Under the pieces are notes generated by a model. That model saw only the letters and a program-made list of their open reading frames with translations, was not told the DNA's origin and made no database searches. The position numbers and the translations under genes are program-made. A stretch of 64,000 nt of DNA from Bdellovibrionales bacterium (GTDB taxonomy: Bacteria > Bdellovibrionota > Bdellovibrionia > Bdellovibrionales > UBA1609): positions 148,207 to 212,206 of the forward strand of contig DAHVQG010000003.1 of assembly GCA_027317865.1 (NCBI GenBank), in the 5' to 3' direction. Shown here one piece after another: positions 1 through 58,143 of this stretch. Numbering within the stretch: position 1 is the stretch's first letter; each line of letters opens with the position of its first letter.

Positions 1-360
1 GTCAGGGTCGGTGAAGTAGACAGCGTAGTACTTGTCATAATATTCACCGGCTGGGTCGACGATTTTGGCTCCCACTTTTTTGAGATAAATTTGCAGTTCG
101 TCGACTTCTTTTTTTGAACCTAAGCGGTAGGCATAGTGATGAAATCCGACATCGCCAAAATGGTGTTTGCTTTTTAGGTGTCGTTTTTCGGCCTGCGTGA
201 TCCAAAGCCGTGTTTGACCGTTGGTCCATCCCATAGAATCTTCGTACTCGTCGAGTACTTTGAATCCTAAAAATTTCATGAGACCGTCGTAGAACTGGCG
301 CGACTTTTTAAAGTTACTCACTGTTATAGAAAGATGATCAACCGCTGTTACTTTTGGCAT
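1..360 (-). CDS. VOC (glyoxalase/bleomycin-resistance/dioxygenase) family protein; 3' end runs off the window
   Basis: Hand translation of the minus strand from ATG at 360 gives MPKVTAVDHLSITVSNFKKSRQFYDGLMKFLGF...GFHHYAYRL...YYAVYFTDPD, open to position 1. A GGAGG Shine-Dalgarno lies at 367-371. It is absent from the ORF track because there is no in-window stop. Confidence 0.7.
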   Translation of the reverse strand, partial: MPKVTAVDHLSITVSNFKKSRQFYDGLMKFLGFKVLDEYEDSMGWTNGQTRLWITQAEKRHLKSKHHFGDVGFHHYAYRLGSKKEVDELQIYLKKVGAKIVDPAGEYYDKYYAVYFTDPD

Positions 361-504
361 TGGCTACCTCCGTTGCTACTCTTTAATACAAATCTTCGAA
401 CATGCGTCTTGGATAATGAAAATTTATAATGAAAGAGTAGGAAGTTGCGGACTGGCGTCACGGTTATTGAGAATTCAACCGTGTGGTAGGGTGTAAGCGA
501 TTTT

Positions 505-540
505 AATTCAAAATAGCGCGCTCTTTGCGGAGCGCGCTAT
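505..540 (-). terminator. Rho-independent terminator candidate downstream of the proline-rich protein gene
   Basis: A perfect 10-bp inverted repeat (ATAGCGCGCT at 513-522, AGCGCGCTAT at 531-540) has an 8-nt loop. On the minus strand it is followed by TTTGAATTAAAA, 27 nt after the stop at 567. Confidence 0.5.
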
Positions 541-566
541 CGTAAATAACTGTTGTTTCGATTTGA

Positions 567-1520
567 TTATCGGTGGCCGAATGGTCGGCCCGGTCGTCTA
601 AATACCGGTGGCCGAAAAACGGGTCGCGGTGGTGGACGAAATACCGGTGGTCTATAAACCGGACGCGGTGGTGGACGAAATACCGGTGGACGGCGAACTG
701 GCGGCCGATAAACCGGCGGCCTGTAAACGGGCGGGTGAAATGGGCGATGCGGACGGTGCCAGCGATGATCCGGAGGTCGCACAATAAATATTGGTGGGGG
801 TTCAGGTGGCTGAACATAAATCGGAGGCTGTGGTTCATATATAGGCGGAGGTTGCGGTCCATAATATACCGGAGGTGGGGGTGGTGGTTCGACAACAACG
901 GGTGGTTGCGCCGGTGGCATAATTACCGGCGGCGGTTGAACAACCGGCGGTGGTTGCAATCCAAAAGTGGGAGGAACCGGTACTGGGTTGTCGTTGAGGT
1001 TTTCTAACATCAGAGTGTCGACACTCGGGGCGCCGACCGCATTTACCGCCGCGGGATTATGACTGTAAACGGAAACGACGATTGTCGCTCCCATATTAAA
1101 TGGGACATTGTAAACTACACCGGACTGAGTCACTCTGAAAAGCGTCGTTTTCGCGCAAATCACCGGTTGAGCGGCGTCGCAAACTCCCTGAGTACCGTCA
1201 CTTGCCTGCCAAACAAAATCAGTTGTCAAGTCATGAGCGAGTTGACCGTTGGCGGTATTCACTAGATCGGCTCTTAGATTTAAAATTTCACCTGGCCGTA
1301 CGCCTATTGCGGCGGGGTGGTTGACGGCGTTTATACCGTTAATCAATACAACGCGGACAATTGTCCCTTGTACACCGGTTACAACTTGCTGATTACCAAT
1401 TGCGCTTACGGGGCCAGAGCCGGCTCCCGATTCCGCGGCCCAAGCGCTTGGAATTCGCGCAAGGCCGCCGAGTTGCAAACCTCCGAAGGCCAACGCTACG
1501 GTGAGAAATCGCTTTATCAT
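567..1520 (-). CDS. Exported protein with an N-terminal globular domain and a 140-residue proline-rich C-terminal tail (acidic/neutral half, then Arg-rich RPPxxRPP half)
   Basis: The 317-aa ORF has the signal peptide MIKRFLTVALAFGGLQLGGLARIPSAWAAE and a GGAGGGGG SD upstream of ATG 1520. The tail reads ...RPPVYRPPVYRPPVRRPPVFRPPPRPVYRPPVFRPPPRPVFRPPVFRRPGRPFGHR. Confidence 0.75.
   Translation of the reverse strand: MIKRFLTVALAFGGLQLGGLARIPSAWAAESGAGSGPVSAIGNQQVVTGVQGTIVRVVLINGINAVNHPAAIGVRPGEILNLRADLVNTANGQLAHDLTTDFVWQASDGTQGVCDAAQPVICAKTTLFRVTQSGVVYNVPFNMGATIVVSVYSHNPAAVNAVGAPSVDTLMLENLNDNPVPVPPTFGLQPPPVVQPPPVIMPPAQPPVVVEPPPPPPVYYGPQPPPIYEPQPPIYVQPPEPPPIFIVRPPDHRWHRPHRPFHPPVYRPPVYRPPVRRPPVFRPPPRPVYRPPVFRPPPRPVFRPPVFRRPGRPFGHR
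626..690. repeat. 39-nt-period tandem duplication inside the Pro/Arg-rich coding region
   Basis: The 26-nt string CGCGGTGGTGGACGAAATACCGGTGG occurs perfectly at 626-651 and 665-690. It encodes the repeated RPPPRPV(Y/F)RPPVF unit on the minus strand. Confidence 0.8.
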
Positions 1521-10714: not shown

Positions 10715-11446
10715 ATGCCCTTCACCATGTACAAATTGATGGCGCTTGCCTTTGCACTCTTTTTGTCTTCCGTGTCGTTTTCGGTTTCGCATGCCGATTC
10801 TTGGGGATGGTCGCGCAAAGAAACACAAATCAAAGATGCACTTCATTTCATAGCGCCAAAACAAGATCCCGCAATCGATTTGTTGGCCAAGAAATGGACA
10901 GAATTTAGAAAGCAACGTCTCGAAGGCCGGGAATCGAGGGCGCTACCGAAAAATCTCGATATTTACTACATTGAGGGGCCGGACTCGTCGCCAAAAGCGG
11001 AACTTGCCGAAAAATTCGCCTCGGAACTTGCTCCCGATCAAATGCCTTTTTCAATTAACGGCGCAAATTTTACTTCGGCGTGGGGTTTTTCAAACCTCCG
11101 ATCCGCACTTCAGCGGTGGGCCAATCGGGGAGTTCGCGACTCGATCAATTCCAGTCAAATCACTTCAAACTCGGGCGTTGTCATCATTTTGTCACCTGGC
11201 AAAATTAATTCGGCGGTCTATCCGCTCTTAATGGCCGCTATTCGCCGAATTCGAGACGTTGCCGTTGTCATGGTCAGTTCACAACTCCCGCCAGAAAACA
11301 TCGCATTTGACGCTCACGCTGCCAATCGCAAAGGCATAGCCGATAATTTTGCGATTGTTCAGTTGAAGCCCGAAGTCGAATGGATGTTAAAGAGGCGCAC
11401 GTCGACAGAAATCAAATTGCCAACGTGTGAGGGCACTCTCGAGTGA
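10715..11446 (+). CDS. Exported protein of unknown function, translationally coupled to the next gene
   Basis: The track frame is 10634..11446. ATG 10715 (or 10727) gives the signal peptide MPFTMYKLMALAFALFLSSVSFSVSHA. Its stop TGA (11444-11446) overlaps the GTG start (11443) of the downstream gene. A segment IEGPDSSPKAELAEKFASEL loosely resembles a decayed P-loop, which is weak evidence. Confidence 0.5.
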   Translation: MPFTMYKLMALAFALFLSSVSFSVSHADSWGWSRKETQIKDALHFIAPKQDPAIDLLAKKWTEFRKQRLEGRESRALPKNLDIYYIEGPDSSPKAELAEKFASELAPDQMPFSINGANFTSAWGFSNLRSALQRWANRGVRDSINSSQITSNSGVVIILSPGKINSAVYPLLMAAIRRIRDVAVVMVSSQLPPENIAFDAHAANRKGIADNFAIVQLKPEVEWMLKRRTSTEIKLPTCEGTLE

Positions 11447-13170
11447 AAGAATTGTCGGGTGTCGCGAAGATTTCGTGTGCCGTTTCGCGTGTGAGTTCGT
11501 GGGCCATGATTTTAGTCGCGGTCGCCATTTCGATGACGGCATCGGGCTTTTTAATGGCGCAACCTCGAATACAGCGATCACGCCGGTTGCGCCAAGTGGG
11601 TCAACAATTAAACCGCCAATTCATCCCCGGCATCGATCTCGATTCATGGACAAACGTTCTTGTTCATCCGTCAGGAACAGAATCGCCGACGAGCTTTTCG
11701 TTGCCAACCGAAGGTCAAATTTTGCTCGACAAGCGTGAACCACGGGCGATTTTTGCCGACTTGCTGGCGCGGCTTAAGAAAATCAAATTAATCGGCGCAA
11801 ATGACGAGGAATCGGCCCAAAACTATGCAAACCTTGCGCGACGTTTTGAAGAAATGCGCCAATGGTATCGTTACGATTTAAAAATCCCCATATTGCAAAA
11901 GCGACGCGTCCTTTACCTCATGCAGATTCTTGCCGAAGAAATTATGTATGTTGGTTCGAAAAAATATCCGACGCAATTTCCGCCTGTTATTCGTGTTTCG
12001 CAACTTGATCCGCAAGCGGCTGAATTAGCCGAGAAAAACCCGCGCGCGGCAACGTTTGTCGGGTATCGGGTTTTAACTGGAGACGTGATTTTGTCAAAGG
12101 CGGTTGGCGACGGTTCAAGCGAATTGATCGCTTTTTTGATGCGAAGCCGGCACATTTTTTCGCATGTAACTGTTGCCGATGTTGATCCGCAGACGCACTC
12201 CCTTATGTCGCCTGAAGCATTGATACAAGATGGGTTGAAGTTACGGTGGATTGATTCGGAATACGATCCAAAACCGCCAAAAGAACCGACAAAGTCGCGG
12301 ATATTTATTTACCGCCTGGTCGCTTCGCCACAAACTGAGAATCAAGTTTCGAATGCGGTAGCGGAGGGTGTCGATCGGTTTGTCTCATGGATGTACTCGC
12401 GCGTAAAAGATCCGTTTCAAGAAGCAGCCGCGCCGTATGATCATTCAATGAATCCGTTCAAACAAAATCAATTTATTTGCACCACCACTGTTTGGAACAT
12501 ATACAATCGGGTCAAAGCGATTCTGCAAAGCCAGGCCGGAGCCAGAAATATAAAATACGACGTGGATTTTTTCAGAGATGATATTAATGGCTACGCCGAG
12601 CCGTACTGGAGTGACGTAAACCCTCGAAACGCCTTGTTGGTAAAAGCACTGGGTGTAAAACGTATTTCGATTCCCGCGCCGGGCGATTTGGAGGTTGATC
12701 CGAATTTCGAACTCGTCGGTTCGGTTGTAAATGTAAGCACATTGCCTCAAGAGCGTATTGAGGCAGCCATTGTGGATTACATTTTGAATTTTTTCGGCAG
12801 CCGCCGTGTGCAGGAAGTTCTTGGTTTTCTCGCAAAATTGCGGCAGGTCAATTGGACGCCGCAAGAAATGGCGGCTCTTGAAAAAGCTGATGTTTTGCCC
12901 GCGGCGGCCTTAAAAAAAATGCAAGCGATTTCGCGGCAAATTCCACCGGGGATGTCGGTTAATCAAGTTACCTTTTTCTATTTTTTAGATAATGTCTTCA
13001 CGCCAAAAATTCGCGCGATGGTTACCGCTCAGGTCGGTTCGAAGATCATCGGGTTTGATTCGCTTTATTCGTTAGTAGCAGGCGATGTGAATGCGGTCTG
13101 GAAAAACACAGTGCGCAAATTTGCGGGTATTCATCAGTTGAACGATTGCGCTGCCGTTTTACAGCAATAG
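11443..13170 (+). CDS. Membrane-anchored/exported protein with a central permuted papain-like (YiiX / Peptidase_C92-type, NlpC/P60 superfamily) domain and a long C-terminal extension
   Basis: The 575-aa ORF has an N-terminal hydrophobic anchor (WAMILVAVAISMTASGFLMA). Residues ~208-356 read GDVILSK...IFSHVTVADV...PEALIQDG...RIFIYRL...APYDHSMNP...QFICTTTVWNIY. This matches the His-before-Cys order of the YiiX-like permuted papain fold as I recall it. Confidence 0.55.
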   Translation: MKELSGVAKISCAVSRVSSWAMILVAVAISMTASGFLMAQPRIQRSRRLRQVGQQLNRQFIPGIDLDSWTNVLVHPSGTESPTSFSLPTEGQILLDKREPRAIFADLLARLKKIKLIGANDEESAQNYANLARRFEEMRQWYRYDLKIPILQKRRVLYLMQILAEEIMYVGSKKYPTQFPPVIRVSQLDPQAAELAEKNPRAATFVGYRVLTGDVILSKAVGDGSSELIAFLMRSRHIFSHVTVADVDPQTHSLMSPEALIQDGLKLRWIDSEYDPKPPKEPTKSRIFIYRLVASPQTENQVSNAVAEGVDRFVSWMYSRVKDPFQEAAAPYDHSMNPFKQNQFICTTTVWNIYNRVKAILQSQAGARNIKYDVDFFRDDINGYAEPYWSDVNPRNALLVKALGVKRISIPAPGDLEVDPNFELVGSVVNVSTLPQERIEAAIVDYILNFFGSRRVQEVLGFLAKLRQVNWTPQEMAALEKADVLPAAALKKMQAISRQIPPGMSVNQVTFFYFLDNVFTPKIRAMVTAQVGSKIIGFDSLYSLVAGDVNAVWKNTVRKFAGIHQLNDCAAVLQQ

Positions 13171-13212: not shown

Positions 13213-14697
13213 CTAAATAACCAATTTTAATACCGGAGCTTTTCGCAGTAGATATTCGCACGGGGACTGATAGGGTTTCTCGCGCAAGCGGTTTAGGTCG
13301 ACCCCCAGTTTTTGTAAGAACGGTACAATTTCGGAGCGTGGTTTTACGACGACCGGGAGTAAATAGGTTTTAGTACCTGCGGAGTCTTCCCAATAAGGGC
13401 GCGACTGGTGGCCGTAATTTGCTGGTGCGTGCAAGGTACCTGCTGGCGTGTAAATAATCGCCCCACCGGTTGCAGATTCAATTTGATGAACTTGCATAAT
13501 TTCGATCGGTTTTAGTTTGCCGGGTTCGCCCATAAACATTTGATAGCTTTCTGGGAAGTGCGACCGGGCGAGCGCATCAACGTAAAAATAAATATTTTCC
13601 GAACCTTCCATTTTATAAATTGAAATTATCTCGCGAGTTTCGGGCATGTTTTGTATAACCGCTTGCCCGGTTTTGAGCCGTTCAGAAAGTAGATTGCGTT
13701 GAGTCGGAGTGGCCTCATTCAAGCAGGTTGAATCGTTCGGTGCGCTAATTCGGAGCATTCCATCTGGCTCCAGCTGAACTGTTATGATTCGGCCCGGTTC
13801 GGTTGCTGTCGAGGCAAAAACTTCGAGTTTGAGAACGTTATATTGGCACTTCGAAAAAATGCTATGCTCGCTTTTCGAATAAAATTGATACATTTCGGGT
13901 TTGTCGAGATTGCCGAAATAAAATGGGTGGCGTCCGGTATAGTGGGCAGTGGTAGCTGTATCTTTTGCCGATAAAATGGCAACGTAATTACCGCGGCGAT
14001 CGATCCACATTTGATTAACATTCAGGTCGCGAATCGAGCCTTTTGTAATCGGCATTAGTTTATCAAAGTGTGAAGTAGCTGAAATCAAGGGTTCATCATT
14101 GAGGTCGTCGTGAAGCCCGCCATAAACTGGGCCCGCGGGATTGAGCGTACCCTTTTCAATGGAATTTTTAGCAATGGAGCGCAATCGGGCAAGGCCTTGC
14201 GAACTAGGGTCAATTGCAAGTGACTCGATTTGAAAATTGAAATGGTCGGTCTCGAGCTGGCGCAGTGTAAAATCAGTTGCGGCCGACTCCTTTGTCCGCT
14301 CTTGATAACTTTGCCGAACTTCAGTGCGCAGCTGTTGAACTAAATCGGGGGGTGCCGTTTGGGAGTCAAAGTTTACCCACCACTGTAGATCGTGCTTTAA
14401 CTTATTCGGTATCGCAATAAACAAACTCTGATAGGGTAGCGTCACTTTAACGCGAACGCGAACGATTTCAGTAGTTGCGGCCAATCGAATGGGACGGTCT
14501 TGAATTTCGTAGTCTTTTTGCAGCCAACGAAGGTAAACATGAGCTCGATAGCCGCCTTTGTCGAAACTTGATACCGGGCTGCGCACGATAAACTCAGGGG
14601 CGCTTTCGCTCGCGACGCTGCTGCCAAGGTCCGTAACTGTTGTGGCCCGCAGTGGAGAAATTGCGAACATGATCGTTGTGAGAATTATCCACTTCAT
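13213..14697 (-). CDS. Large exported orphan protein
   Basis: The 494-aa ORF has the signal peptide MKWIILTTIMFAISPLRATT. I recognise no motif in it. It is convergent with the 575-aa gene. Confidence 0.6.
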   Translation of the reverse strand: MKWIILTTIMFAISPLRATTVTDLGSSVASESAPEFIVRSPVSSFDKGGYRAHVYLRWLQKDYEIQDRPIRLAATTEIVRVRVKVTLPYQSLFIAIPNKLKHDLQWWVNFDSQTAPPDLVQQLRTEVRQSYQERTKESAATDFTLRQLETDHFNFQIESLAIDPSSQGLARLRSIAKNSIEKGTLNPAGPVYGGLHDDLNDEPLISATSHFDKLMPITKGSIRDLNVNQMWIDRRGNYVAILSAKDTATTAHYTGRHPFYFGNLDKPEMYQFYSKSEHSIFSKCQYNVLKLEVFASTATEPGRIITVQLEPDGMLRISAPNDSTCLNEATPTQRNLLSERLKTGQAVIQNMPETREIISIYKMEGSENIYFYVDALARSHFPESYQMFMGEPGKLKPIEIMQVHQIESATGGAIIYTPAGTLHAPANYGHQSRPYWEDSAGTKTYLLPVVVKPRSEIVPFLQKLGVDLNRLREKPYQSPCEYLLRKAPVLKLVI

Positions 14698-23802: not shown

Positions 23803-25011
23803 TTAACTTTGGTTTGCGCGCTTAAAGATTGCTCTAACGCTCGCGCCGATGACTTCTCCGTTTTTACCTAAACGATTCGAAGGGATCACTTTGCCATCGT
23901 GAAGCTGCGCAATTGTTTTTACGACAACCGACCCAAGCCCTACTGAAATTCGACCGCCCGCTTTCGCATCAATAAATCGAGTTGTGCGTCGTTCGCCGTA
24001 GTCTTTAAGTGCTTGTGCGGAAAACCCTGGCCCGTCATCGTTCACAAATACTTCGACGTGATCGCCGAGTTTGTAGTCGATTGTGATTTCGTTCCGGGCA
24101 AAACTGAATGCATTTTGAAGCAGGTTTCGAAAAACCCGCTTCAACAATAGTGCGTTACCATTGACGATTGCCGGCGTGGCCGGAGCGTTATTGCGAACTT
24201 GAAGCATTGTCTTCGTTTTTAACTGTTGTGTATCGAAAACTTCGAGTTCGTCTTCTATAATTTCCGTTACGTCGACGGACGTTTTGCTGATATCGGTATC
24301 CGCCCCCGCGAGTTGACTCATCAACAATAAGTCATTGACCAAAGTTTCAATATAATTCGCTTCTTTTTGCGACGTCACAACAAGCTCGCGTTTTGAGTCT
24401 TCGGCAAGACGGCCCTGCTCATCGGACAATAAAGATAAATTGTTCTGCATTGAGGCGATCGGCGTTCGTAAATCGTGCGCAAGTTCTTGTAATAAGCGAG
24501 TGCGCGATTTTTCTTTCGATTTCAATTCGTCGAAAAGCTTTTTAAGTAAAACAATTGCCGACAATGCCGACCCCAACAAAAATGCCGAAACAATAGCGAA
24601 TGCAAAAAGTAATATGGGACGATGATATGGCGGATGTGAGCGCTTTTCTAACGATCGGGAATGTTTTGATAAAACATGCGGCCAGCGAGGTGAGAGCGCT
24701 ATATACATCGTGTTTTTGTCGGTCAGTTTTTCAATAATAATGGGCGGCTTGTGGCGCCAAAAGGCGGTGGATTCAGTCCCATTTGGGAGAGTGACCTTAC
24801 TGAGCTTGAAGGGGAGAGGACGATTTGTTGAGCTGCCGGATACCCGTCCGTTTGCATCAAAAACCCAGGCATTAAATTGCGGTGGGTGATGAACAAAATT
24901 CCTTCGGTGCAGTTGAAAAAAAAGTTGAATAATAAAAAAGCTTAAAACCAAAAATAGAGCGGTAAACCCGAGACTGATAATCAAATATTTTCTCAGAAGC
25001 GGCAGCTTCAT
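23803..25011 (-). CDS. Sensor histidine kinase (two N-terminal TM segments, HisKA + HATPase_c)
   Basis: The 402-aa ORF has the H-box LAHDLRTPIASM, N-box LLQNAFSFA and G-box DDGPGF...GLGSVVVK. It overlaps the upstream RR gene by 4 nt. Confidence 0.88.
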   Translation of the reverse strand: MKLPLLRKYLIISLGFTALFLVLSFFIIQLFFQLHRRNFVHHPPQFNAWVFDANGRVSGSSTNRPLPFKLSKVTLPNGTESTAFWRHKPPIIIEKLTDKNTMYIALSPRWPHVLSKHSRSLEKRSHPPYHRPILLFAFAIVSAFLLGSALSAIVLLKKLFDELKSKEKSRTRLLQELAHDLRTPIASMQNNLSLLSDEQGRLAEDSKRELVVTSQKEANYIETLVNDLLLMSQLAGADTDISKTSVDVTEIIEDELEVFDTQQLKTKTMLQVRNNAPATPAIVNGNALLLKRVFRNLLQNAFSFARNEITIDYKLGDHVEVFVNDDGPGFSAQALKDYGERRTTRFIDAKAGGRISVGLGSVVVKTIAQLHDGKVIPSNRLGKNGEVIGASVRAIFKRANQS

Positions 25012-25679
25012 TTTTTATCCAAACGATAACCGATACCGTATATCGAACGAATGACAATTTCTTTGAGACCGGCTGCTTTTAGTCGCGTGCGCAGACGGCT
25101 TACGTGAGAATCGATAGTGCGATCGAAAATTTCGCCATCGCGATGAAGTGCCGTGATCAGCGCATCGCGAGTTACGACTGATCCTGAGTGTTCCATTAGG
25201 TATTGTAGTGTATCGAATTCGCGGCGATTGAGGTCCACTTCAACCTTGCCGCAAAACACGCGACGCTGATTGATAACCAAAGTAACGTCGCCAAAGCATA
25301 ATTGCTCGTCGCGCTGGATGGGCTCTTTTAGCGCGTTTTTAATTCTCGCAATTAATATTTTCGGTTTAAACGGCTTTTCGACGTAATCGTTGGCTCCGGC
25401 GCTGAAGCCGGCGAGCACCGCTTCTTCGTGGGTTTGCGCAGTTAAAATTACGACGGGTACGCGCGACTCGGATTTTCGCAGGTGTTTGCAAAATTCGAGT
25501 CCGTTGCCGTCGGGTAAACCGAGATCAAGTAGTACTAAATCGGCCGTCGAATTTTCGTTCGCTTTAAAAGCTGAGGTCAAATCGCGCACCCAAATAACGG
25601 TATGCTTTTCGCTTTCGAGCGTGAGTTGCAAGCTTCGGCCTAGAACAGGGTCATCTTCGACTAAAAGAATTTTGCTCAT
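25008..25679 (-). CDS. OmpR-family response regulator
   Basis: The 223-aa ORF has a REC domain (ILLVEDDP...LVLLDLGLPDGNG...KPF) and a winged-helix C-terminus (YGIGYRL). Confidence 0.92.
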   Translation of the reverse strand: MSKILLVEDDPVLGRSLQLTLESEKHTVIWVRDLTSAFKANENSTADLVLLDLGLPDGNGLEFCKHLRKSESRVPVVILTAQTHEEAVLAGFSAGANDYVEKPFKPKILIARIKNALKEPIQRDEQLCFGDVTLVINQRRVFCGKVEVDLNRREFDTLQYLMEHSGSVVTRDALITALHRDGEIFDRTIDSHVSRLRTRLKAAGLKEIVIRSIYGIGYRLDKK

Positions 25680-25907
25680 TGTTCTGATATATTACTCACA
25701 AATGATTGCAGAAGTGTGGATTTTTTAATCGCGTCTACGTTCAAGTTCATCCATTCAACTGTATCAAAATGAGACGTATTTTTATAATTCCGGCTGAGCC
25801 ATAAAGTCTCAACAGTTTGATGGTAATTTGAACCTAACGCTCCACGAGGAGCCAAACATTCGGCCTAATAAATGCGCGCTAAAAAGCCGAAATAGAAGGA
25901 GTCATAT

Positions 25908-26246
25908 ATGAGTAAAAATAAAATTGTAGTAAGCCTGATGGTCGTATTGTTCGCATTCGGTTCGGCCGTAGCTTTGGGGCAACCGAACCGTCGGCACCAT
26001 CCGCCGTTCGGCTTTTTAATGGGTGCCTGTGTCGCGACAACGATGGCGCAAAACGGTTCGGCGTTTCCGCTGCAGCAAATGATCCAGCATATTCAGCAAA
26101 ACATTCAAAATAAACAAAATGGTAAGCCATTTGTGAAACCAAATTTAGATGCCGCAACTCGTGCGGCCATGAAGGCGGCATTTCAAACATGCCGGGGCGA
26201 ACTGCCCTTTCCGCATTGGCAACATCCAGGAGCAAATAAATCATGA
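25908..26246 (+). CDS. Small exported Gln/His-rich protein, first gene of a three-gene operon
   Basis: The 112-aa ORF has a GAAGGAG SD and the signal MSKNKIVVSLMVVLFAFGSAVALG. Its stop overlaps the next start (ATGA at 26243-26246). Confidence 0.5.
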   Translation: MSKNKIVVSLMVVLFAFGSAVALGQPNRRHHPPFGFLMGACVATTMAQNGSAFPLQQMIQHIQQNIQNKQNGKPFVKPNLDAATRAAMKAAFQTCRGELPFPHWQHPGANKS

Positions 26247-26731
26247 ACGGAAATTTGGCGCGGCTCAAATCATGTATCAGCAAAATCGGTTTTATGATCG
26301 CGGGCGTGGTGGTTTTTGCTGCCGCTCCCGCATACGCTACGCTTGGTGGTTCGGTTGATACCATTCAAACAGATGTTCACGCGCTACACGCACGAGTCAT
26401 CGCCACGCAGCCGCACGCTCTTTACTCGGTTCACGAAATCACCTATGGCGCGACCAAGGTCCGGGAATACGCAAATACAAACGGAATCGTTTTTGCGATC
26501 GCGTGGAACGGGCTTACCCATCCCGATCTGTCGAAACTATTGGGAACATATTATGCCGGCTATAAGGCAAAAATTCAGTCGAGACCGCCGCAGATTAAAG
26601 GTGAACTGCTGCGCACATTGCGCGTCGGCACGTTAGTTGTTCAGATGGGCGGCCACATGCGCGACGTCGTTGGGCGTGCATATGATTCGTCTTTGATACC
26701 ATCTGGGGTTTCGTTAAGCGACATTAAATAA
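26243..26731 (+). CDS. DUF2844-like exported protein
   Basis: The 162-aa ORF has a signal/anchor IGFMIAGVVVFAAAPAYA. The pattern TLGGS...Y.VHE......VREY....G.VFAI.W.G...PDLS.LLG.Y...Y matches my recollection of the DUF2844 family, which is typically adjacent to DUF3443 genes. Confidence 0.55.
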   Translation: MNGNLARLKSCISKIGFMIAGVVVFAAAPAYATLGGSVDTIQTDVHALHARVIATQPHALYSVHEITYGATKVREYANTNGIVFAIAWNGLTHPDLSKLLGTYYAGYKAKIQSRPPQIKGELLRTLRVGTLVVQMGGHMRDVVGRAYDSSLIPSGVSLSDIK

Positions 26732-26755
26732 ATGTGATTTATATGAGGTAAATGC

Positions 26756-28042
26756 ATGAAGGAGCAATGGAGCGGCAAAACAATTGCAATAATTGTCGTC
26801 GGTACGTTTCTTCTTCTAATAGGTTTTAACAATTGCGGCAAAAGTTTTGAAGCGGTTGGCGCCGGTGGCAATGGTGCGGCCGGATATTATTCGCCAACGG
26901 GCCAGGTGCTTGCCGAATGCGCGCAATTCGGAACGGGTTCGGACTGGGGGCCTGTCGAAATGGCAAATGTCGTTTTAGGCGGTGAGCCGGCCGTGACCAT
27001 TCCGGTTCAAGTGATCGACTCGTCTTATGCAACCGTGCCGTCCAGTTGCCCTTCGCCCGATACGGATCCGAAAACCGCGGGGTTTAACGGCATTTTAGGC
27101 GTCGGTTTATTTAAACAAGATTGCGGGTCTCAGTGTACAACTGATTCAACCACGCAAATGTATTATGTTTGCAACAACAGCTCTTGTACCGCAACAACCG
27201 CAACACTCGCCGAACAAGTGACAAATCCCGTCGCGGAACTGCCGCAAGATAATAACGGTGTCGCCTTGGTTTTGCCGACCGTCGCATACAGCGGCGGATA
27301 CTTTGCGAACGGTTACATGCTTTTGGGGATCGGAACCGAAAGTAATAACTCCCCTGCGGCAGTGACCGAGTTAACTGCGGACGATACGTATGGCGAATTT
27401 ACGGATGAATTTAACGGCACGCAAATGTCTGGGTTCATCGATAGCGGGTCAAACGGATATTTTATACCGGCGTCTTCGAAGTATTATCCGGATTGCACGA
27501 ACTCCCAATACAATCAGTGGTTCTGCCCTTCTGCAAATTACAGTTCGACTGCCACTGCCATCGGGGTGAATAACAAGCAAGAGTCGTTTCCGTTTCAAAT
27601 TGGCAATGCCGAAAATTTGTTTAATTCAGGTAATTTCGCGTTTATGAATTTGGGCGGCGACAGCAGCGGCTCGCTCGGCAGTTTCGGCGATATGGGATTG
27701 CCATTTTTCTTTGGCCGAACTGTATATGTCGGCCTCGAACATACCAAATCACCGATCGGCACTGGCCCCTATTGGGCGTTTTCTGGCGGTCAAAATCTGG
27801 TTGATGTGAACGGTTCGGTCGCTATCCCGCCGGGCCCGAATGTGATGACCGTTTCGATCGGCAACACGGGTCAGTGCGACGGTGACAGTTACGACAATGA
27901 ACCGTGTACGTCAGTTACGATTTGCTCACCTGGTTCGACAAATTGCCAAACTATAAACAACATTTTGGTCGATACGGGCAGTTACGGTCTGCGGGTTTTT
28001 TCGTCGGTACTTCAGGTCAATCTCAAACCTGAAAATCCGTGA
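26756..28042 (+). CDS. DUF3443-type pepsin-fold (aspartic-protease-like) exported protein, apparently circularly permuted
   Basis: The 428-aa ORF has an N-terminal anchor TIAIIVVGTFLLLIGFNNC. The motif order is GILGVG (112-116), FIDSGSNGYF (D229), LPFFFGRTVYVG (317-), then CSPGSTNCQTINNILVDTGSYGLRVF (D406) at the extreme C-terminus. Confidence 0.7.
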   Translation: MKEQWSGKTIAIIVVGTFLLLIGFNNCGKSFEAVGAGGNGAAGYYSPTGQVLAECAQFGTGSDWGPVEMANVVLGGEPAVTIPVQVIDSSYATVPSSCPSPDTDPKTAGFNGILGVGLFKQDCGSQCTTDSTTQMYYVCNNSSCTATTATLAEQVTNPVAELPQDNNGVALVLPTVAYSGGYFANGYMLLGIGTESNNSPAAVTELTADDTYGEFTDEFNGTQMSGFIDSGSNGYFIPASSKYYPDCTNSQYNQWFCPSANYSSTATAIGVNNKQESFPFQIGNAENLFNSGNFAFMNLGGDSSGSLGSFGDMGLPFFFGRTVYVGLEHTKSPIGTGPYWAFSGGQNLVDVNGSVAIPPGPNVMTVSIGNTGQCDGDSYDNEPCTSVTICSPGSTNCQTINNILVDTGSYGLRVFSSVLQVNLKPENP

Positions 28043-28661
28043 TGATCGTCATCTGTGGATGATCGAGTAGCCAACTTGCCGGGAGCTTTTGGCGCTCCGA
28101 CTCGACTTTTTTTGCGCCGGCATCAAGAACCCTTTTGAGGATTTCTTTTTTTTGCAAACCGCGAACGAGTAGAGCAATGGCTTTCGTTTTTAAAAAAGCG
28201 TTTGCTCCATAAGAAACCGCGCGTGTGTTCGGCGGCAAATGAAGACGGGCACAGGTGTCGTCGGTGAGTGTCAGACATCCCGAATAAAATTTTTGCGGCA
28301 GGCTCGGTTCATGAAATGCGATGTGGCCGTTCATACCGAGCCCTAAAAATGCGAAATCCGCGCCTCGTTCAGCCGTATCAATAAATTCGAATCGCGGCTT
28401 GAACATCGGCAATTCATCTAAAAAAAATTTTTGAAACGGGCGCTCGGTATTATGCAATATTTCATCAACTTGCACTAAGCGTATCGATTCATCGACGAGC
28501 TGCGGATTTTCGCGCCATGACCTGTAAAGAGGTCGAGGGGTCTCGCCTGCGGGCACAAAAAGTCGAAACGGGCGTGGAGTTATATTACGGCTTTGTTGAT
28601 GGAGCCAATCGTTGGCACAATCAATCCACTCGCGTTCATTTTTACAAACTTCGAAGTTCAT
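28023..28661 (-). CDS. Short NagB/Pgl-family protein (glucosamine-6-phosphate deaminase / 6-phosphogluconolactonase fold)
   Basis: In the 212-aa ORF, LFVPAGETPRPLY, VQVDEI and LGLGMNGHIAFHEP align with NagB motifs (GLPTGGTP, FNMDEY, GVGNDGHIAFNEP). Confidence 0.65.
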   Translation of the reverse strand: MNFEVCKNEREWIDCANDWLHQQSRNITPRPFRLFVPAGETPRPLYRSWRENPQLVDESIRLVQVDEILHNTERPFQKFFLDELPMFKPRFEFIDTAERGADFAFLGLGMNGHIAFHEPSLPQKFYSGCLTLTDDTCARLHLPPNTRAVSYGANAFLKTKAIALLVRGLQKKEILKRVLDAGAKKVESERQKLPASWLLDHPQMTIITDFQV

Positions 28662-29450: not shown

Positions 29451-30113
29451 TTAGGCTGCCGATTGACGGCGTAATTTTTCACGCAATTCTTGCACTTCGG
29501 CTCTCAGACGTTCGTTTTCTTGCACCAAATCTCGGATCTTTTTTTGAAGTAATTCGGCTGAGTTAATCGCTTTAGCTGCCGGTTGCGCGGTAGGTATTGA
29601 GCGCTCGCTTGTAACAGCGGGGGTGAGGGGAACTGCGGCTTGCGCCAGAAGTTCTTCGATATTTTCAGAAATGATTAATTCAGGAGCGAACTTTTCGGCT
29701 CGCAAGCGGCCGTCGAGCATCATCGCCCGCGCCTCTTCGATAATTTTCAAAAATGCGGCCGAGATTTCGGCTGGCGACGGGGAATTTGTTTTAAAAAGAT
29801 CGTCAATTGTCCGTTTTTGGGCGTGGGTGTGAGTTTGTAATAGGCGGCTGCTCTGCTCACTGCTTAAGCCGTGCATGGCCGTCGCAAGAGTTAATACGGC
29901 TAGGCCCTTAGAAACTTCGGCGATTGTGTTGTCGTTCCAGTTCAACATTTTTTCGATTGTAAGCATTTTTTCGCGCACGGCGCGCGCCCACCGAGGATCT
30001 TCGCCTTCTATGATGTTTAAAAAATTATCCTGCTTTTGTTTACCGCAGGTTTCGATTAGCTGAATAAGTTGTATAAAGCCGCCTGGCCTTTGGTAGCGCG
30101 ATAACATACCCAT
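29451..30113 (-). CDS. FliG-C-like domain protein with C-terminal coiled coil (not in a flagellar context)
   Basis: In the 220-aa ORF, the segment EGEDPRWARAVREKMLTIEKMLNWNDNTIAEVSKGL...LATAMHGLSSEQSSRLL...KRTIDDL...ISAAFLKIIEEARAMMLDG follows the FliG middle/C-terminal pattern (EDPE.A..I...MF.FEDI..LDD..IQ..L...). The tail LLQKKIRDLVQENERLRAEVQELREKL is coiled-coil-like. Confidence 0.45.
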   Translation of the reverse strand: MGMLSRYQRPGGFIQLIQLIETCGKQKQDNFLNIIEGEDPRWARAVREKMLTIEKMLNWNDNTIAEVSKGLAVLTLATAMHGLSSEQSSRLLQTHTHAQKRTIDDLFKTNSPSPAEISAAFLKIIEEARAMMLDGRLRAEKFAPELIISENIEELLAQAAVPLTPAVTSERSIPTAQPAAKAINSAELLQKKIRDLVQENERLRAEVQELREKLRRQSAA

Positions 30114-38860: not shown

Positions 38861-40735
38861 GTGTCGCCGAATCGCGGCTGGGTATTGATACTAATTGGAT
38901 TACTCATCAGTTCGTTTATCGGCGGTGCGATCCACGTCCTATTGTCGCCTGAACGAATCACCGAATTTGTCCACGATCTTGTCGATCAATACGAACCTAA
39001 ATTTACGATTCAATTTCAAAATGCCCGTTTGCGGTTGGCGGAGGGGTGGGAGCCTATCGTTGCCATTGAACTCGATAACGTCGACTTTAAAGCCAAAGAT
39101 CCGTGTATTACGGGGTCAGAAATTTACGCCGATCACGTGATCGTACCTCTCCAAGTTATTCCGCTCATCGATAAGAAAGTTCGATTTGGCGATATTTACG
39201 CCCACAATCTTAAGTTTCAGTGGCGGCCGCCGGAGTGCCGCAAACAAACCTTATCACAAAGCGTATCTGGACCGCATTCCGCGGATAAAAATGAGGATAA
39301 AATAGGTTTACTCGAGCGCTTCTTTCACGATCGTTGGAATTATGAAGTCGCCAATACCGAAGAATTACTTCACGGGTTTGACGTGGCCAAGTTTGAATTT
39401 TTGGTGGGCGGCAAAATTTCATATTTTAGCGCGAACGATTTCCGAGCCCATTTCGACACAGGTCGGCGTCAGGCAATCGTCCATGCAAACATTCGTCTCG
39501 GCCAACCGTGGGTGGGGGATGCTGGTTTCGGTGAATTTCGCATGACAGCTAAAATCAACGCGTCGAAAATTCGAGTCAGCGGAAATGGCAATCTTAAAGA
39601 AGGCCAAATCGCGGTAGATTCACAGTGGAATATCAGCACGGGCAATTTGAAACTACGAGGGAATTTTACCGATCTGCCGATTCAGCGGGTTCTCGTATTG
39701 GCGAATCACTGGGGAGTGTTGTCGGCGTTTCATCCCGAATTACACGATGAATGGCTGTCTTGCGATTTGTCGTATGACGGTGACATTCGTGCCTTGCCGA
39801 AGGGTAAATTACAAGATTCTCAATGCCGAATGTATGGTGATTTGGGCGATTGGTTTTTAAAAACTCCTACGGTACAAATACAAAAACCTTTTCCGGTGAA
39901 GTGGCATCTTGTCCATGTCGATGTGAAAAAATGGCTAGATGGGTTCGGTGTCGGTTCGACGTGGGGAGTTGTTGGGCGCTTCGGCGATTTCACCGGAAAT
40001 TTGGGTTTAGCTGGGGCTGAAAAACTGCAAATTGACGGAAGTCTTACCGGCTTCTCGGCCTATGTCGTAAGTAAACGGAACCGTGCTAAATTGAAGGTCA
40101 AAAATGTAAATTTGAATACGAGGATTCAGCCAAATCAAATTTCAGGCGAGCTCGCCCACATGCAAATCGAAAACGGCGTAATAGGCGGTTTGTTGAATTT
40201 TACCTTTAATAGGGCCGGAACGGGGCAGATCAATTTTAACTTGAAGAATGTCCGTTTGCCGTTGACGGTTCAACAAGTACTTTGGAGCGGGCACGCGGGT
40301 GCCACAGCTTTGGCGGGTACTTTGAAATTCAAAGGATTTCAAATGAATCAATTTGACGGCAACCTTGCCATTCAACAACTGTCGTTAAATCCAGCCGGAA
40401 AATGGGCGGCGCTTGCAACAAAACTTATTTCATTTGTTTCGCCGCTGAATAGTTTAACTAAAAATCTACCAGCCGGAATTGAGTGGAAGCACTTGCGGGC
40501 CCACATTTTATATCGTAACTCAATTGGCCACTGGCAACGATTTGAAGCCCACGCGGCGATACCAAACCGCTTTAATATTTTCACCGATTCAACGGGGGGC
40601 TGGTCAAATGCGGGCCAATTGACGGGCCGGATATTCATCAAGAGTTTCAATGACCGTTTTCGCGCAATAAGGTCGCGTGTTGTTTTGCTTAGCGGGAGTT
40701 GGCAAAATCCGCAGTTAATATTGCCGGCTCGGTAA
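38861..40735 (+). CDS. Large envelope protein with an N-terminal TM anchor, possibly AsmA-like
   Basis: The 624-aa ORF starts at GTG and has the anchor WVLILIGLLISSFIGGAIHVLL. A long beta-rich region follows (FQNARLRLAEGWEPIVAIELDNVDFKA...), similar in style to AsmA-family N-termini. The family assignment is tentative. Confidence 0.5.
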   Translation: MSPNRGWVLILIGLLISSFIGGAIHVLLSPERITEFVHDLVDQYEPKFTIQFQNARLRLAEGWEPIVAIELDNVDFKAKDPCITGSEIYADHVIVPLQVIPLIDKKVRFGDIYAHNLKFQWRPPECRKQTLSQSVSGPHSADKNEDKIGLLERFFHDRWNYEVANTEELLHGFDVAKFEFLVGGKISYFSANDFRAHFDTGRRQAIVHANIRLGQPWVGDAGFGEFRMTAKINASKIRVSGNGNLKEGQIAVDSQWNISTGNLKLRGNFTDLPIQRVLVLANHWGVLSAFHPELHDEWLSCDLSYDGDIRALPKGKLQDSQCRMYGDLGDWFLKTPTVQIQKPFPVKWHLVHVDVKKWLDGFGVGSTWGVVGRFGDFTGNLGLAGAEKLQIDGSLTGFSAYVVSKRNRAKLKVKNVNLNTRIQPNQISGELAHMQIENGVIGGLLNFTFNRAGTGQINFNLKNVRLPLTVQQVLWSGHAGATALAGTLKFKGFQMNQFDGNLAIQQLSLNPAGKWAALATKLISFVSPLNSLTKNLPAGIEWKHLRAHILYRNSIGHWQRFEAHAAIPNRFNIFTDSTGGWSNAGQLTGRIFIKSFNDRFRAIRSRVVLLSGSWQNPQLILPAR

Positions 40736-55507: not shown

Positions 55508-56275
55508 GTGAAGTTACCGTTATCCCTGATTATTATCACGTTGAATGAAGAAAAGAATATAGAGCGATGCATACGGTCTGTGCCGTTTGCCTCGGATATT
55601 CTAGTACTTGATAGTGGCAGCACGGACCGGACCGTTGACATTGCACGCAAGTTAGGGGCACGCACTTTGCAAGAGCCATGGCGCGGTTACGCACGCCAGA
55701 AAATTCGTGCAACGGCCCTGGCACGAAACGAATGGGTGCTTTCGCTCGATGCCGATGAAGCACTGAGTGAACTGGCCCAAAAGGAAATTGTCGAACTGTT
55801 TCAAACCAGTCAGCCCGCCACTGACATTGATGCCTATTCGTTTCCGCGAAAGGCCAATTATCTCGGCCGATGGATGAACCATACGGGGATGTACCCGGAC
55901 CGGCAAACCCGCCTATACCATCGCGCCCGGACGCAATGGAAGGACGCTCAGGTCCATGAAAAAATAGAGGCCAAAAATGTGAGTGAATTTTCAGGCGACA
56001 TTTTGCATTGGCCGTTCATCGATATTTCAGACCAAATTCAAACGATCAATCGCTATTCGAGCTTAAGAGCGAACGAGCTTATGGAGCGGAACCAAAAATT
56101 TTCACCGGTAAAAATGGTAACCAAAACGGTTTCTAAATTTTTTGAAACTTTTTTCCTAAAAAAGGGGTTTCTTGACGGACAAGAAGGCTTGATCGCATCG
56201 ATAGTAACGGCGTTTTCAACTTTTCTTCGGTGGTCAAAGTTGCGCGAATTGCAAAAGAGCAAGAACCAGCTTTAG
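55508..56275 (+). CDS. Family 2 glycosyltransferase (LPS-core WaaE/KdtX-like)
   Basis: It starts at GTG. LSLIIITLNEEKNIERCIRS and the DxD region SLDADE are present. Confidence 0.8.
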   Translation: MKLPLSLIIITLNEEKNIERCIRSVPFASDILVLDSGSTDRTVDIARKLGARTLQEPWRGYARQKIRATALARNEWVLSLDADEALSELAQKEIVELFQTSQPATDIDAYSFPRKANYLGRWMNHTGMYPDRQTRLYHRARTQWKDAQVHEKIEAKNVSEFSGDILHWPFIDISDQIQTINRYSSLRANELMERNQKFSPVKMVTKTVSKFFETFFLKKGFLDGQEGLIASIVTAFSTFLRWSKLRELQKSKNQL

Positions 56276-58143
56276 TTCAACAAAACATTTTGGCCCGATT
56301 TAAACGGTAACGTACACTCGTTAAAATCAAAGTCTTTTTTACATCCGATGGTCGCCCGCAGTGGAGCGGTAAACCATTCCTTCTTTCGCCGGGCGCCTTC
56401 GGTATGTGAATCGTCGAAAACATATGAATCTTGAATCGAATTTTCGTGCGGATATCGAGTTTGTAGCGACGGGGCCTCGCATTGCCAGGAACTGCTGGCT
56501 AAAAACACATTCATGCGGGCCCTCGGGCTTGAATAGGTGGTTTTGAGCAAATTAGCCATCGCGTAACTCCCCATAACGTCGGCAAAGCGTTCATAAGGAG
56601 GTGAGGAGTAACCTTCGAGCACAAGTTCTCGACGGTCAGAAAATTGCCCTTCGATGCGAAGTGTTTTCTCAAGCACTTTTTGCATCATATCTTTTGCCGT
56701 TGAAAGAGCGTCGCGCAGTCTCTCAAGACGATCGGTGTTTTGCGTGCAACGATATTCGGCGGTGAAAAACATCAGTGTGGTCACCTCATCGTCGATAGGT
56801 TCTTCGCCGTGGCTCCATAAATAATAGCTACAGGGGTTCAGATAATTAGGATTTGTTTGAAGCGTACCGTTTGGGAACGGAATTTTAGCTTTTGTTATGC
56901 GCAAAAACTCGTTATCAGAGGCAAGATCTGACATTTGATCGGCCACAATATCATGGGCAAAGCGTTTGTAATCGGCTGAGGTGAGAACGTTCGGCGTATC
57001 CTGAAGTTTGAGGCATTCTTGAAATTGCGGTAGCTCCGGCTGAAATGCGTCGAGCGATTTCAAAGACTGCGGAAATTGCTTTTTGAATTGATTCCATGCA
57101 TTGCAGCTAAATGCACGGGGTTCGCACACGTTTTGTCTTAGCGTTGCCAACCGTTGCCCCATCAATGAGTGCTTTTCAAACAAATATTGGCTTCGATTTA
57201 ATGCGAGGACGTGGCCCATTTCGTGGGCGAGCGTTTGCATTATGTCTTCGCTGTTAAAATCTCCCGCGCAAACGGTAATCAGGTTAAGGTGCGGATAATA
57301 GTAAGCGTTGTTGGTTGTCGTCGAACATTCTTGATCTGAGATTTCGGGCATTGAACCCGGCAAAACCAATTTCACTTTTCGGATACGTTCAGACCAATCT
57401 TCGCGAACCGCTTTCGGAATATCGAGATCGGCTATAACTTGCAAATAGCTTTTTTGCAGACGTTTGAACAACCGGACGACTTTTTGCCAATTGGCGTCGT
57501 CCTTCCAAATGGCGCGCGAGATTTCAGAGATAAGATCGCGCTTCACGCGTTCGCGCTCGATATCAAGTTCAATCGGTATCATCGTAGCCGGAATTTTATA
57601 ATAGCCCGGAAATTTTTTATTCATTCGATAAATAATTGTTTCGTTGATCGCAGCCGCCCAAATTTCGCCGAGTTGATAATTTAGTTGTTCATCGCTCAAG
57701 CGCTCCTGCAATGTCATTTGGCTGCGCGGTTTGCGGCTAAGAAGAGCTTCGAGTTTCTGAAAATAGTGATGGCGAACGAGAATCCAGTAAAAGTCTTTTG
57801 GAAGTTCATGGCGGTGGCGAATCTTCGCAATCGAATAACGGTAGAACACTTGCGTAAAGCCGTTTCGCGTATTGCCTTGAAGAATTTGAATGGATTGATG
57901 TTTACGTTTGATCATGAGATTGCCAAGAGCCGCTGGCGAATAGAGATAGTGGCAATACGAGTCGAGCGTGGCCATGCAATAAGGGTGTTTGCTTGGAGAA
58001 AAGTATTGATCCGAAGTAAAATCTAATAGAGGGGTGTGGGTCGGCTTCCAATTACTTACCGAGCCGCCTGAAATACAAGAAGTAAGAGTCAACGCGGTAC
58101 CCAAACAAATTAAAACGCCGCTCGCAATTCGTATTCGAATCAT
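56272..58143 (-). CDS. Lipoprotein zinc metallopeptidase with divergent M13 (neprilysin/PepO)-like motif order
   Basis: The 623-aa ORF has the lipobox LTLTSCISG. The motifs are NNAYYYPHLNLITVCAG (279-), TLAHEMGHVLA (307-311) and PYERFADVMGSYA (518-522). These correspond to the M13 elements NAYY..N.I..PAG, HExxH and ExxAD. Confidence 0.6.
   Translation of the reverse strand: MIRIRIASGVLICLGTALTLTSCISGGSVSNWKPTHTPLLDFTSDQYFSPSKHPYCMATLDSYCHYLYSPAALGNLMIKRKHQSIQILQGNTRNGFTQVFYRYSIAKIRHRHELPKDFYWILVRHHYFQKLEALLSRKPRSQMTLQERLSDEQLNYQLGEIWAAAINETIIYRMNKKFPGYYKIPATMIPIELDIERERVKRDLISEISRAIWKDDANWQKVVRLFKRLQKSYLQVIADLDIPKAVREDWSERIRKVKLVLPGSMPEISDQECSTTTNNAYYYPHLNLITVCAGDFNSEDIMQTLAHEMGHVLALNRSQYLFEKHSLMGQRLATLRQNVCEPRAFSCNAWNQFKKQFPQSLKSLDAFQPELPQFQECLKLQDTPNVLTSADYKRFAHDIVADQMSDLASDNEFLRITKAKIPFPNGTLQTNPNYLNPCSYYLWSHGEEPIDDEVTTLMFFTAEYRCTQNTDRLERLRDALSTAKDMMQKVLEKTLRIEGQFSDRRELVLEGYSSPPYERFADVMGSYAMANLLKTTYSSPRARMNVFLASSSWQCEAPSLQTRYPHENSIQDSYVFDDSHTEGARRKKEWFTAPLRATIGCKKDFDFNECTLPFKSGQNVLLN

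Follow-up and report, generated by a model that had tools for sequence, protein, structure and literature searches.

A 64,000-nucleotide stretch of DNA from a member of the Bdellovibrionales (GenBank assembly GCA_027317865.1, contig DAHVQG010000003.1, positions 148,207 to 212,206; hereafter the window) contains a three-gene operon whose last gene, gene 3, encodes a 428-residue protein of the DUF3443 family. Gene 3 lies at 26756-28042 on the forward strand, and its product is a pepsin-fold protein and putative lipoprotein. It is an exact circular permutant of the canonical DUF3443 proteins: a segment that normally opens the domain, and that carries one of its two aspartate motifs, stands behind the native C-terminus, so that the order of the four segments of the domain is N2-C1-T-A rather than A-N2-C1-T. 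We consider it very probable that the gene 3 product is a genuine permutant that has been maintained by selection. Here we describe the rearrangement, its likely origin, the probable fold and putative active site of the protein, and the recurrence of such permutations within the family.

The rotated order of the gene 3 product

Gene 3 matches DUF3443 (PF11925) in Pfam with E = 3.6e-115 and 385 bits, against a cut-off of 25, and the match is split into two stretches that are not collinear. Residues 48-342 correspond to positions 73-367 of the 367 positions in the profile, and the remaining part of the profile matches residues 343-427. The same rotation is found in comparison with P0002, a canonical member of the family. 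By BLASTP, residues 48-342 of gene 3 align with residues 128-431 of P0002, which is its C-terminus, at 64% identity, and residues 343-427 align with residues 41-125 at 67% identity. These alignments agree with the limits of the relocated segment in a preliminary description of this DNA, residues 343-428 or nucleotides 27782-28039. A second canonical protein, P0003, gives the same rotated BLASTP match. In tblastn the relocated segment is 71% identical to L004, the locus of P0002; its identity to the orthologues is 67-71%, and that of the body of the protein is 59-64%. Gene 3 has a single copy of each segment, and there is no other DUF3443 sequence in the window.

The protein begins with a signal peptide, a cysteine at the lipobox position (Cys27, in FNNC) and a flexible linker (residues 1-47, 26756-26896, on the forward strand like all parts of the gene). 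Comparison with the canonical loci L003 and L004 places the missing DTGS segment here. The main body, B, comprises residues 48-342 (26897-27781) and contains the rest of the N-lobe, the whole C-lobe and the native C-terminal strand, ...GPYWAF. It includes a flap-like FGTGS at residues 58-62 and the C-lobe catalytic motif D229-S-G-S, encoded by GAT AGC GGG TCA at 27440-27451. A new junction linker, SGGQNLVDVNGSVAIPPGP, follows at residues 343-361 (27782-27838) and connects the native C-terminus with the strand that is natively N-terminal. Segment A, the relocated part of the N-lobe (residues 362-428, 27839-28039), contains this N-terminal strand, a Cys-rich hairpin (CSPGSTNC), the catalytic strand ILVDTGSYGLRVF and the new C-terminus. 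The N-lobe catalytic motif within it, D406-T-G-S, is encoded by GAT ACG GGC AGT at 27971-27982 and is 22 residues from the C-terminus, not 20 as first reported.

Two D-[TS]-G-[TS] motifs are therefore present, one per lobe (DTGS at 406-409 and DSGS at 229-232), each paired with a hydrophobic-hydrophobic-Gly motif (ILG at 113-115 and FFG at 318-320). The Asp and the Gly of the motifs do not vary within the family. Along the chain the four elements start at residues 112 (GILGVG), 227 (FIDSGS, with Asp229), 315 (LPFFFG) and 403 (ILVDTGS, with Asp406). This is the rotated order of aspartic protease motifs that had been proposed from the sequence, with the DTGS motif last, although the third motif had been placed at residue 317.

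The two junctions can be followed residue by residue. Where the post-lipobox linker meets AECAQ, a block that runs from L-V-D to P-E-N is absent. It recurs after P-Y-W-A-F, preceded by SGGQN, where the canonical sequence is NSASQ, and followed by a proline and the stop codon. The junction linker SGGQNLVDVNGSVAIPPGP derives from the linker that precedes the domain in canonical proteins, where its counterpart is ...NSASQLVDSNGSVPSLSG. The cut itself is in the loop that leads from the DTGS strand to the flap-like FGTGS hairpin.

A search of about 5.8 billion proteins found 5,130 relatives. With the exception of gene 3's own cluster, the best local alignment covers about 68-73% of gene 3 in the 120 matches listed. 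In all 106 of the top matches that could be classified, the domain ends at the C-terminus of the protein with ...PYWA[YF], which corresponds to residue 342 of gene 3. The preliminary description had given a canonical order with DTGS first, and this holds for these 106 proteins and for 253 of the 278 sequences in the wider set described below. Canonical members do not carry DTGS last, and no second DTGS is present upstream in gene 3.

The canonical proteins P0003 (from locus L003) and P0002 (from L004) occupy the same neighbourhood as gene 3. The shared gene order consists of LNT, a zinc-ribbon protein, a GGDEF response regulator, DUF2844, DUF3443, a convergent Glucosamine_iso-like gene and PIG-L; within it, a histidine kinase and an OmpR-type regulator are found in L004 and the window only. 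The DNA directly 3' of the new stop codon is homologous to the flank 3' of the canonical stop codon in L004. By synteny, gene 3 is orthologous to the genes for P0002 and P0003. There is no remnant of a second copy of the segment at the gene 3 locus, no repeats or microhomology were found flanking the relocated segment, and no A-B-A-B tandem-fused intermediate is present among the long members of the family, whose extra length consists of N-terminal accessory domains.

The rearrangement took place at this locus, in one lineage related to the Bdellovibrionales, and the starting gene was a canonical orthologue. Segment A is gone from the front of the domain and now follows the native C-terminus, to which it is joined by a 19-residue linker that comes from the old pre-domain linker. 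Because the junction re-uses this native linker, it fits an in-frame tandem duplication and two deletions. The most likely route would be an A-B-A-B duplication from which the first A and the second B were then deleted.

Fold, putative active site and alternative explanations

The AlphaFold2 model of the canonical orthologue P0002, made with 68 homologues, has a predicted local distance difference test (pLDDT) score of 89.5 and a predicted template modelling (pTM) score of 0.86. Foldseek found 488 matches to this model in the PDB at E <= 0.001. The best 50 are without exception A1 aspartic proteases of the pepsin family (plasmepsin II, BACE1, penicillopepsin and endothiapepsin), with E from 3e-11 to 2e-10, a probability of 1.00 and alignments that cover nearly the full length of the target. 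Their target-normalised template modelling (TM) scores are 0.47-0.63, and are 0.50 or more in 43 of the 50. These matches and the motifs, of which each lobe has one D[TS]G[ST] and one hydrophobic-hydrophobic-Gly in pepsin order, support a pepsin-type bilobal fold for the canonical orthologue and for the family. This is the fold that the preliminary description had suggested, and a Foldseek E of about 1e-11 speaks for it in the modelled orthologue. The native N- and C-terminal strands would be adjacent in such a fold, and the permuted chain could close to the same bilobal structure. We infer that it folds equivalently to the canonical chain. Asp406 (DTGS, N-lobe) would then face Asp229 (DSGS, C-lobe) as a catalytic dyad, and the gene 3 product would most likely be an aspartic endopeptidase tethered to the membrane.

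Several results weigh against this interpretation. The AlphaFold model of the permuted chain, made from its natural alignment, has a pLDDT of 69.2. Its C-lobe is good, but the relocated segment scores only 23-68, the N-lobe elements in contact with it and the regions around both Asp motifs are poor, and residues 26-42 are below 50. With this model, Foldseek gives a marginal aspartic protease match (E = 0.014). The poor modelling of the segment is likely due to an alignment depth near zero over it. At the sequence level, gene 3 has no match to Pfam Asp (PF00026) at E <= 1, a search of PDB sequences with the family profile found no pepsin, and phmmer against the PDB found nothing significant. 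The hhalign comparison with an approximate pepsin sequence was non-significant (probability 0.5%). Membership of the A1 peptidases is therefore unsupported by sequence, and for this reason we describe the protein as having a pepsin fold and not as an A1 member. The lipid anchor is also subject to doubt. The leader of the gene 3 product is hydrophobic, and its Cys27 is aligned with a lipobox cysteine that is almost invariant in the family, yet the local sequence is GFNNC, where relatives have lipoboxes such as LVAGC and LLAAC, and FNNC departs from the pattern [LVI][ASTVI][GAS]C. The protein may be lipid-anchored.

Is the rotation real, and is the relocated segment functional? All of the sequences derive from metagenome assemblies, in which a chimeric contig or a collapsed tandem repeat might mimic a rotation. 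However, the 90% identity cluster of gene 3 contains 8 distinct sequences from different NCBI and ENA assemblies, all of them permuted and with the frame intact. They differ by 1-16 residues, and the substitutions are scattered through both parts of the protein and the junction, where N347S, V351S, A356N and P359S have all kept the frame. Contigs L001, L002 and L005 have the same three-gene operon and agree with the 223-kb source contig across both junctions. The relocated segment has no flanking repeats, its GC content equals that of the operon, and both flanks are syntenic with the canonical loci. The 8 variants and three contigs that share the rotated order exclude the one-off misassembly that had been raised as a concern, and an artefact of assembly or gene calling is extremely improbable. 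A different concern is that the segment is a non-functional relic, part of an inactive or decaying protein or of a pseudo-enzyme, in which disabling mutations have yet to accumulate. The permuted lineage is young and narrow, being a single 90% cluster with an amino acid divergence of no more than about 4% and, between gene 3 of the window and of L005, a synonymous divergence (dS) of 0.16. The long-term viability of its cut is less well supported than that of the cuts in types T2-T4, described below. The ratio of non-synonymous to synonymous divergence (dN/dS) between the same two genes is 0.13 overall, 0.07 in the body and 0.31 in the relocated segment, the last being a statistically weak figure from 12 substitutions only (6 synonymous and 6 non-synonymous), and the AlphaFold model docks the segment without confidence. 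Against a relic, the 6 non-synonymous changes are confined to the linker and the extreme tail, outside the core, and the frame is intact in 8/8 variants. All of the family-invariant residues are kept, 25/25 in the body and 7/7 in the segment, including both Asp, the rest of the DTGS motif and the conserved Cys, among them both of the hairpin. The segment fits the segment-A sub-profile as well as the canonical protein does (E = 1e-30, compared with 7.6e-31 for P0002), and it is closer to the orthologues than the body is. A dN/dS of 0.07 in the body would not be expected of a dead enzyme that lacked one catalytic Asp, and other permutants of the family have persisted until their members were only 61-68% identical. 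A relic is quite improbable on this evidence.

A third possibility accepts the rotation and the fold and concerns the activity of the whole family. Pepsin-fold proteins that are not catalytic are known, such as xylanase inhibitors and pregnancy-associated glycoproteins (PAGs), and DUF3443 proteins could likewise be binding or scaffold lipoproteins, with DUF2844 as the ligand. No characterised DUF3443 members were found in the literature, their sequence relationship to A1 peptidases is undetectable, and they have no obvious propeptide. The residue at the flap varies between Phe and Tyr, and some members have a degenerate first motif, for example DTGD or DTAS. However, the known non-catalytic proteins (TAXI-I, PAGs) have lost residues of the catalytic dyad, whereas Asp229 and Asp406 are both invariant in DUF3443, Asp229 in alignments of 68 and of 75 sequences, and such conservation of a dyad is typical of active enzymes. 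The T/S-G-S positions after each Asp are at least 90% conserved in these 68-75 diverse members, and both hydrophobic-hydrophobic-Gly motifs are conserved. A family without protease activity is unlikely, and we think it rather more probable than otherwise that the permuted gene 3 product is an active peptidase.

Recurrent permutation in the DUF3443 family

According to an exhaustive search of representatives, the family comprises 2,239 clusters at 50% identity. A classifier with four segment profiles, which reports the order of A, N2, C1 and T, was applied to 278 family sequences. The canonical order A-N2-C1-T was found in 253 of these. Eight sequences, all from the cluster of the window protein, have the order N2-C1-T-A (type T1). 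Three further orders were found in two sequences each: T-A-N2-C1 (T2; L102 and L160), C1-T-A-N2 (T3; P0287 and P0353) and C1b-T-A-N2-C1a (T4; P0319 and P0360). The N-terminally truncated P0360 had been put with T2 by the classifier and was moved to T4 on inspection. The other 11 of the 278 are fragments or are frameshifted.

In T2 the lipobox is followed by the 37 residues of the canonical C-terminus (FDWG...PYWA[FY]), then by segment A and the rest of the domain, with the stop codon just before FDWG. The cut is before the C-lobe hydrophobic-hydrophobic-Gly motif. The two T2 genes, in L102 (Ga0193729_1038848, 3-1481, reverse strand) and L160 (3-1364, forward strand), encode proteins with 61% identity. 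The T3 proteins consist of the C-lobe, the fused termini and the N-lobe, and end with ...YYSC(T/G)N; here the cut is at the lobe boundary and the lobes are swapped. P0353 of this type is encoded at L167 4001-5326. In T4, which includes P0319 (L165/L166 456-1817), the cut is just after the C-lobe FIDTGSNGLFFP strand and is the C-lobe counterpart of the window cut by pseudo-two-fold symmetry. Stop codons were confirmed for the T2, P0353 and P0319 genes, and the last two are complete, with no downstream remnant.

Types T2-T4 have a common junction, in which ...GP[YL][WF]A[SFY] is followed by 10-13 residues and NV..[VI]. In all types the native termini are fused, by linkers of 10-19 residues. Of the evidence at hand, these shared junctions speak most strongly for adjacent termini and for the viability of chains re-wired in this way. 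The preliminary description had argued that a permutant is sterically plausible, and the direct joining of native C- and N-termini in T2-T4 as well is in keeping with this.

How often has permutation occurred? Relatives of the same type in T2-T4 are 61-68% identical. In a nearest-neighbour analysis the closest outside relatives of T1, T2 and P0353 are canonical proteins. P0287, of type T3, and P0319/P0360, of type T4, are closest to each other, at 61-68%, despite their different termini. P0353 probably arose independently of P0287, and there are hints that P0287 and T4 share a partially duplicated ancestor that was trimmed differently. Judged by these nearest-neighbour relationships of T1, T2, P0353 and P0287/T4, there have been at least four independent permutation events in the family.

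Genome and metagenome collections were also scanned with a DNA pattern for the junction (W-A-[FY], about 60 codons, DTGSxGxR), which is specific on the known loci. The scans gave 157 loci, all but 6 of them by chance. Four of the 6 are canonical, and the other two are L102 and L160; no further type-1 permutant was found in these scans, and the species of the window was absent from the GTDB representatives. The match at L107 was rejected, being a canonical protein in which the W-A-F of the pattern is in the signal peptide. Other candidate permutants were rejected as a BLAST extension artefact (P0105), as having frameshifted tails or interiors (P0383, P0329, P0339) or a chimeric N-terminus (P0386), and as fragments (P0381, P0345, P0356, P0370). 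P0339, P0329, P0383 and P0386 could pass for domain rearrangements in automated surveys. True permutants, for their part, are under-described by collinear tools: Pfam reports two stretches, BLAST covers only 68-69% of the protein, AlphaFold mis-models it from the natural alignment and a sequential Foldseek search with the resulting poor model gives a marginal match.

Pepsin-type proteases serve as a textbook case of gene duplication with fusion and, to our knowledge, the order of their chain has been regarded as fixed. We are evenly divided over the broadest reading of our results, in which DUF3443 would be a large, unrecognised family of exported pepsin-fold aspartic peptidases and a natural hotspot of permutation, with at least four independent rearrangements at four cut sites that left functional enzymes. 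One of the cut sites is at the lobe boundary, and two are pseudo-symmetric, just after each catalytic strand. If this reading is right, the family would provide the first evidence from nature that a pepsin fold can accommodate the reordering of its lobes and psi-loop halves, and its permutants would be present-day counterparts of the duplication-fusion intermediates that have been proposed on the way from retropepsin-like halves to pepsins. One bacterial family with the same fold in five chain orders would be a natural experiment that bears on the wiring of lobes and psi-loops, on folding pathways and on the route through duplication and deletion. Function may be tuned by shifts in the position of the free termini and the lipid tether relative to the active site. 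The members of some 2,200 clusters at 50% identity can also be flagged as probable aspartic peptidases that are exported and have a conserved partner protein, and are a target for annotation and biochemistry.

The operon, its partner gene and comparison with known systems

The operon is on the forward strand. Gene 1 (25908-26246), an open reading frame of 112 codons, encodes a small exported protein. Gene 2 (26243-26731) encodes a DUF2844 protein of 162 residues with a signal peptide ending ...APAYA/TLGG, and matches DUF2844 (PF11005) in Pfam over its full length. The preliminary description had three tightly linked genes with an ATGA overlap of genes 1 and 2 at 26243-26246 and a 24-nucleotide gap between genes 2 and 3, all of which is exact, and its assignments to DUF2844 and DUF3443 are upheld by Pfam (3.6e-35 and 3.6e-115). 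Shine-Dalgarno-like sequences (AAGGAG, AGGAG and GAGG) are 7-11 nucleotides 5' of the starts of genes 1-3. The export signals of the three products were predicted by eye. None of the three genes has a match in NCBIfam, and promoter and terminator scans at the operon gave nothing above chance.

Gene 1 matched no family in Pfam or NCBIfam. Its product had been called Gln/His-rich. It is rich in Gln, Ala, Pro and Asn, and with 11 Gln in about 88 mature residues the first half of the label is apt, but there are only 5 His. Contigs L001, L002 and L005 have a gene 1 that is identical or 99% identical. The canonical locus L004 has a weak homologue that was not called as a gene (39% identity, 2.9e-9), and no homologue was found in a search of the canonical locus L003. 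By these comparisons gene 1 appears specific to the permuted lineage apart from the weak trace in L004. Its best family hint, Metal_resist (CpxP/ZraP-like), is non-significant (E = 0.65).

Divergent from the operon, on the reverse strand at 23803-25679, is a two-component system identified with Pfam: a histidine kinase (23803-25011) and an OmpR-type response regulator (25008-25679). The same divergent arrangement is present in L001, L005 and the canonical L004 and is absent in the canonical L003. The system is a candidate regulator of the operon, which may be under its control. The layout of gene 1 divergent from an OmpR-type regulator and histidine kinase pair (23803-26246) recalls cpxP-cpxRA. 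On the other side is the convergent Glucosamine_iso-like gene (28023-28661, reverse strand, Pfam), which serves as the conserved marker of the 3' flank. Its 3' end and that of gene 3 overlap by 20 nucleotides (28023-28042), compared with 4 nucleotides in L003, and the longer overlap seems to be a by-product of the insertion where the stop codon used to be.

Elsewhere in the window, the reverse strand at 29451-30113 encodes a 220-residue protein. It has a coiled-coil tail as well as a FliG C-terminal-like domain, and no other flagellar gene lies close to it. Four large open reading frames of 494-624 codons (11443-13170, 13213-14697, 38861-40735 and 56272-58143) have no Pfam family at E <= 1e-5. 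The DnaK of the window is 73-75% identical to that of named metagenome-assembled genomes of the Bdellovibrionales and Pseudobdellovibrionaceae, and the host is accordingly an uncultured relative of these bacteria.

DUF2844 has its place directly upstream of the DUF3443 gene in L003, L004, L102 (partial), L107, L131, L144/L161, L163 (Ca. Sulfobium) and L165. It precedes DUF3443 in 8 of 9 other independent loci that include upstream sequence, from several lineages, and the pair in the window has the same layout, with DUF2844 co-oriented, immediately upstream and separated by the 24-nucleotide gap. The gene upstream of the T3 gene in L167 (3399-4004, 201 codons) has no Pfam match; DUF2844-like motifs (FQVHEI... 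and ...SGHMGAVKGY) can be recognised in it by eye, and it is probably a divergent DUF2844. No literature on DUF3443 or DUF2844 was found, and a search of the PDB with DUF2844 gave nothing. Gene 3 would be co-transcribed with DUF2844 and the lineage-specific small exported protein. We infer a role for DUF2844 alongside the gene 3 product: it may be co-exported with the lipid-anchored aspartic endopeptidase as its chaperone, inhibitor or substrate adaptor, and that it is a partner or inhibitor, as the preliminary description proposed, is a hypothesis.

The closest known systems are the canonical DUF3443 proteins P0002 and P0003. These are alike in both segments at 59-71% identity, in their locus, in having DUF2844 upstream, and in the lipoprotein-type leader and the invariant residues. 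They differ in that the window protein places the first 85 residues of the mature domain after its last residue, so that its new C-terminus adjoins the catalytic DTGS strand, and in that the window has the 112-codon gene before the pair. Canonical proteins give a collinear match to the whole DUF3443 profile, and the window protein does not.

With the pepsin-like peptidases of MEROPS family A1 (clan AA; pepsin, endothiapepsin, plasmepsin II, BACE1) the family shares, in its canonical orthologue, the bilobal fold and, in each lobe, a D[TS]G[ST] motif plus one hydrophobic-hydrophobic-Gly motif. DUF3443 also has a flap-like [FY]G[TD]GS hairpin, and its C-terminal motif resembles the ILGDVF...VGLA of pepsin, although not significantly in hhalign. 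Unlike the A1 peptidases, DUF3443 proteins have no sequence-level match to that family and no propeptide, are Cys-rich and are predicted to be exported lipoproteins. The bacterial A1 homologues described by Rawlings and Bateman (2009; PMC2761423) are true members of A1 without signal peptides and are predicted to be intracellular. The window protein also differs in its permuted chain order, which is not described for A1 in the literature searched; within the limited coverage of the library, that literature brought up no pepsin fold with a permuted chain.

Circular permutation itself is well known; the present case is of interest for its recurrence, the cuts inside catalytic lobes and the size of an uncharacterised family. 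Natural circular permutants have been explained by duplication and deletion (reviewed by Bliven and Prlic, 2012; PMC3320104), and in the literature searched, permutation in connection with aspartic proteases concerns the swaposin, a permuted saposin insert of the plant enzymes. As in swaposins and other natural permutants, homologous segments are rotated in the DUF3443 proteins, the termini are fused by a short linker and there are several cut sites per family. In swaposins, however, the permuted unit is an inserted saposin domain, whereas in the window protein it is the catalytic fold itself, and the cut detaches the strand with a catalytic Asp from the lobe to which it belongs. The nearest parallels are the T2-T4 permutants of the same family, which share with the window protein the fused junction of native termini, the lipoprotein leader and, where the upstream sequence is visible, DUF2844. 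They have other cut sites, come from other lineages and are older, with 61-68% identity within each type.

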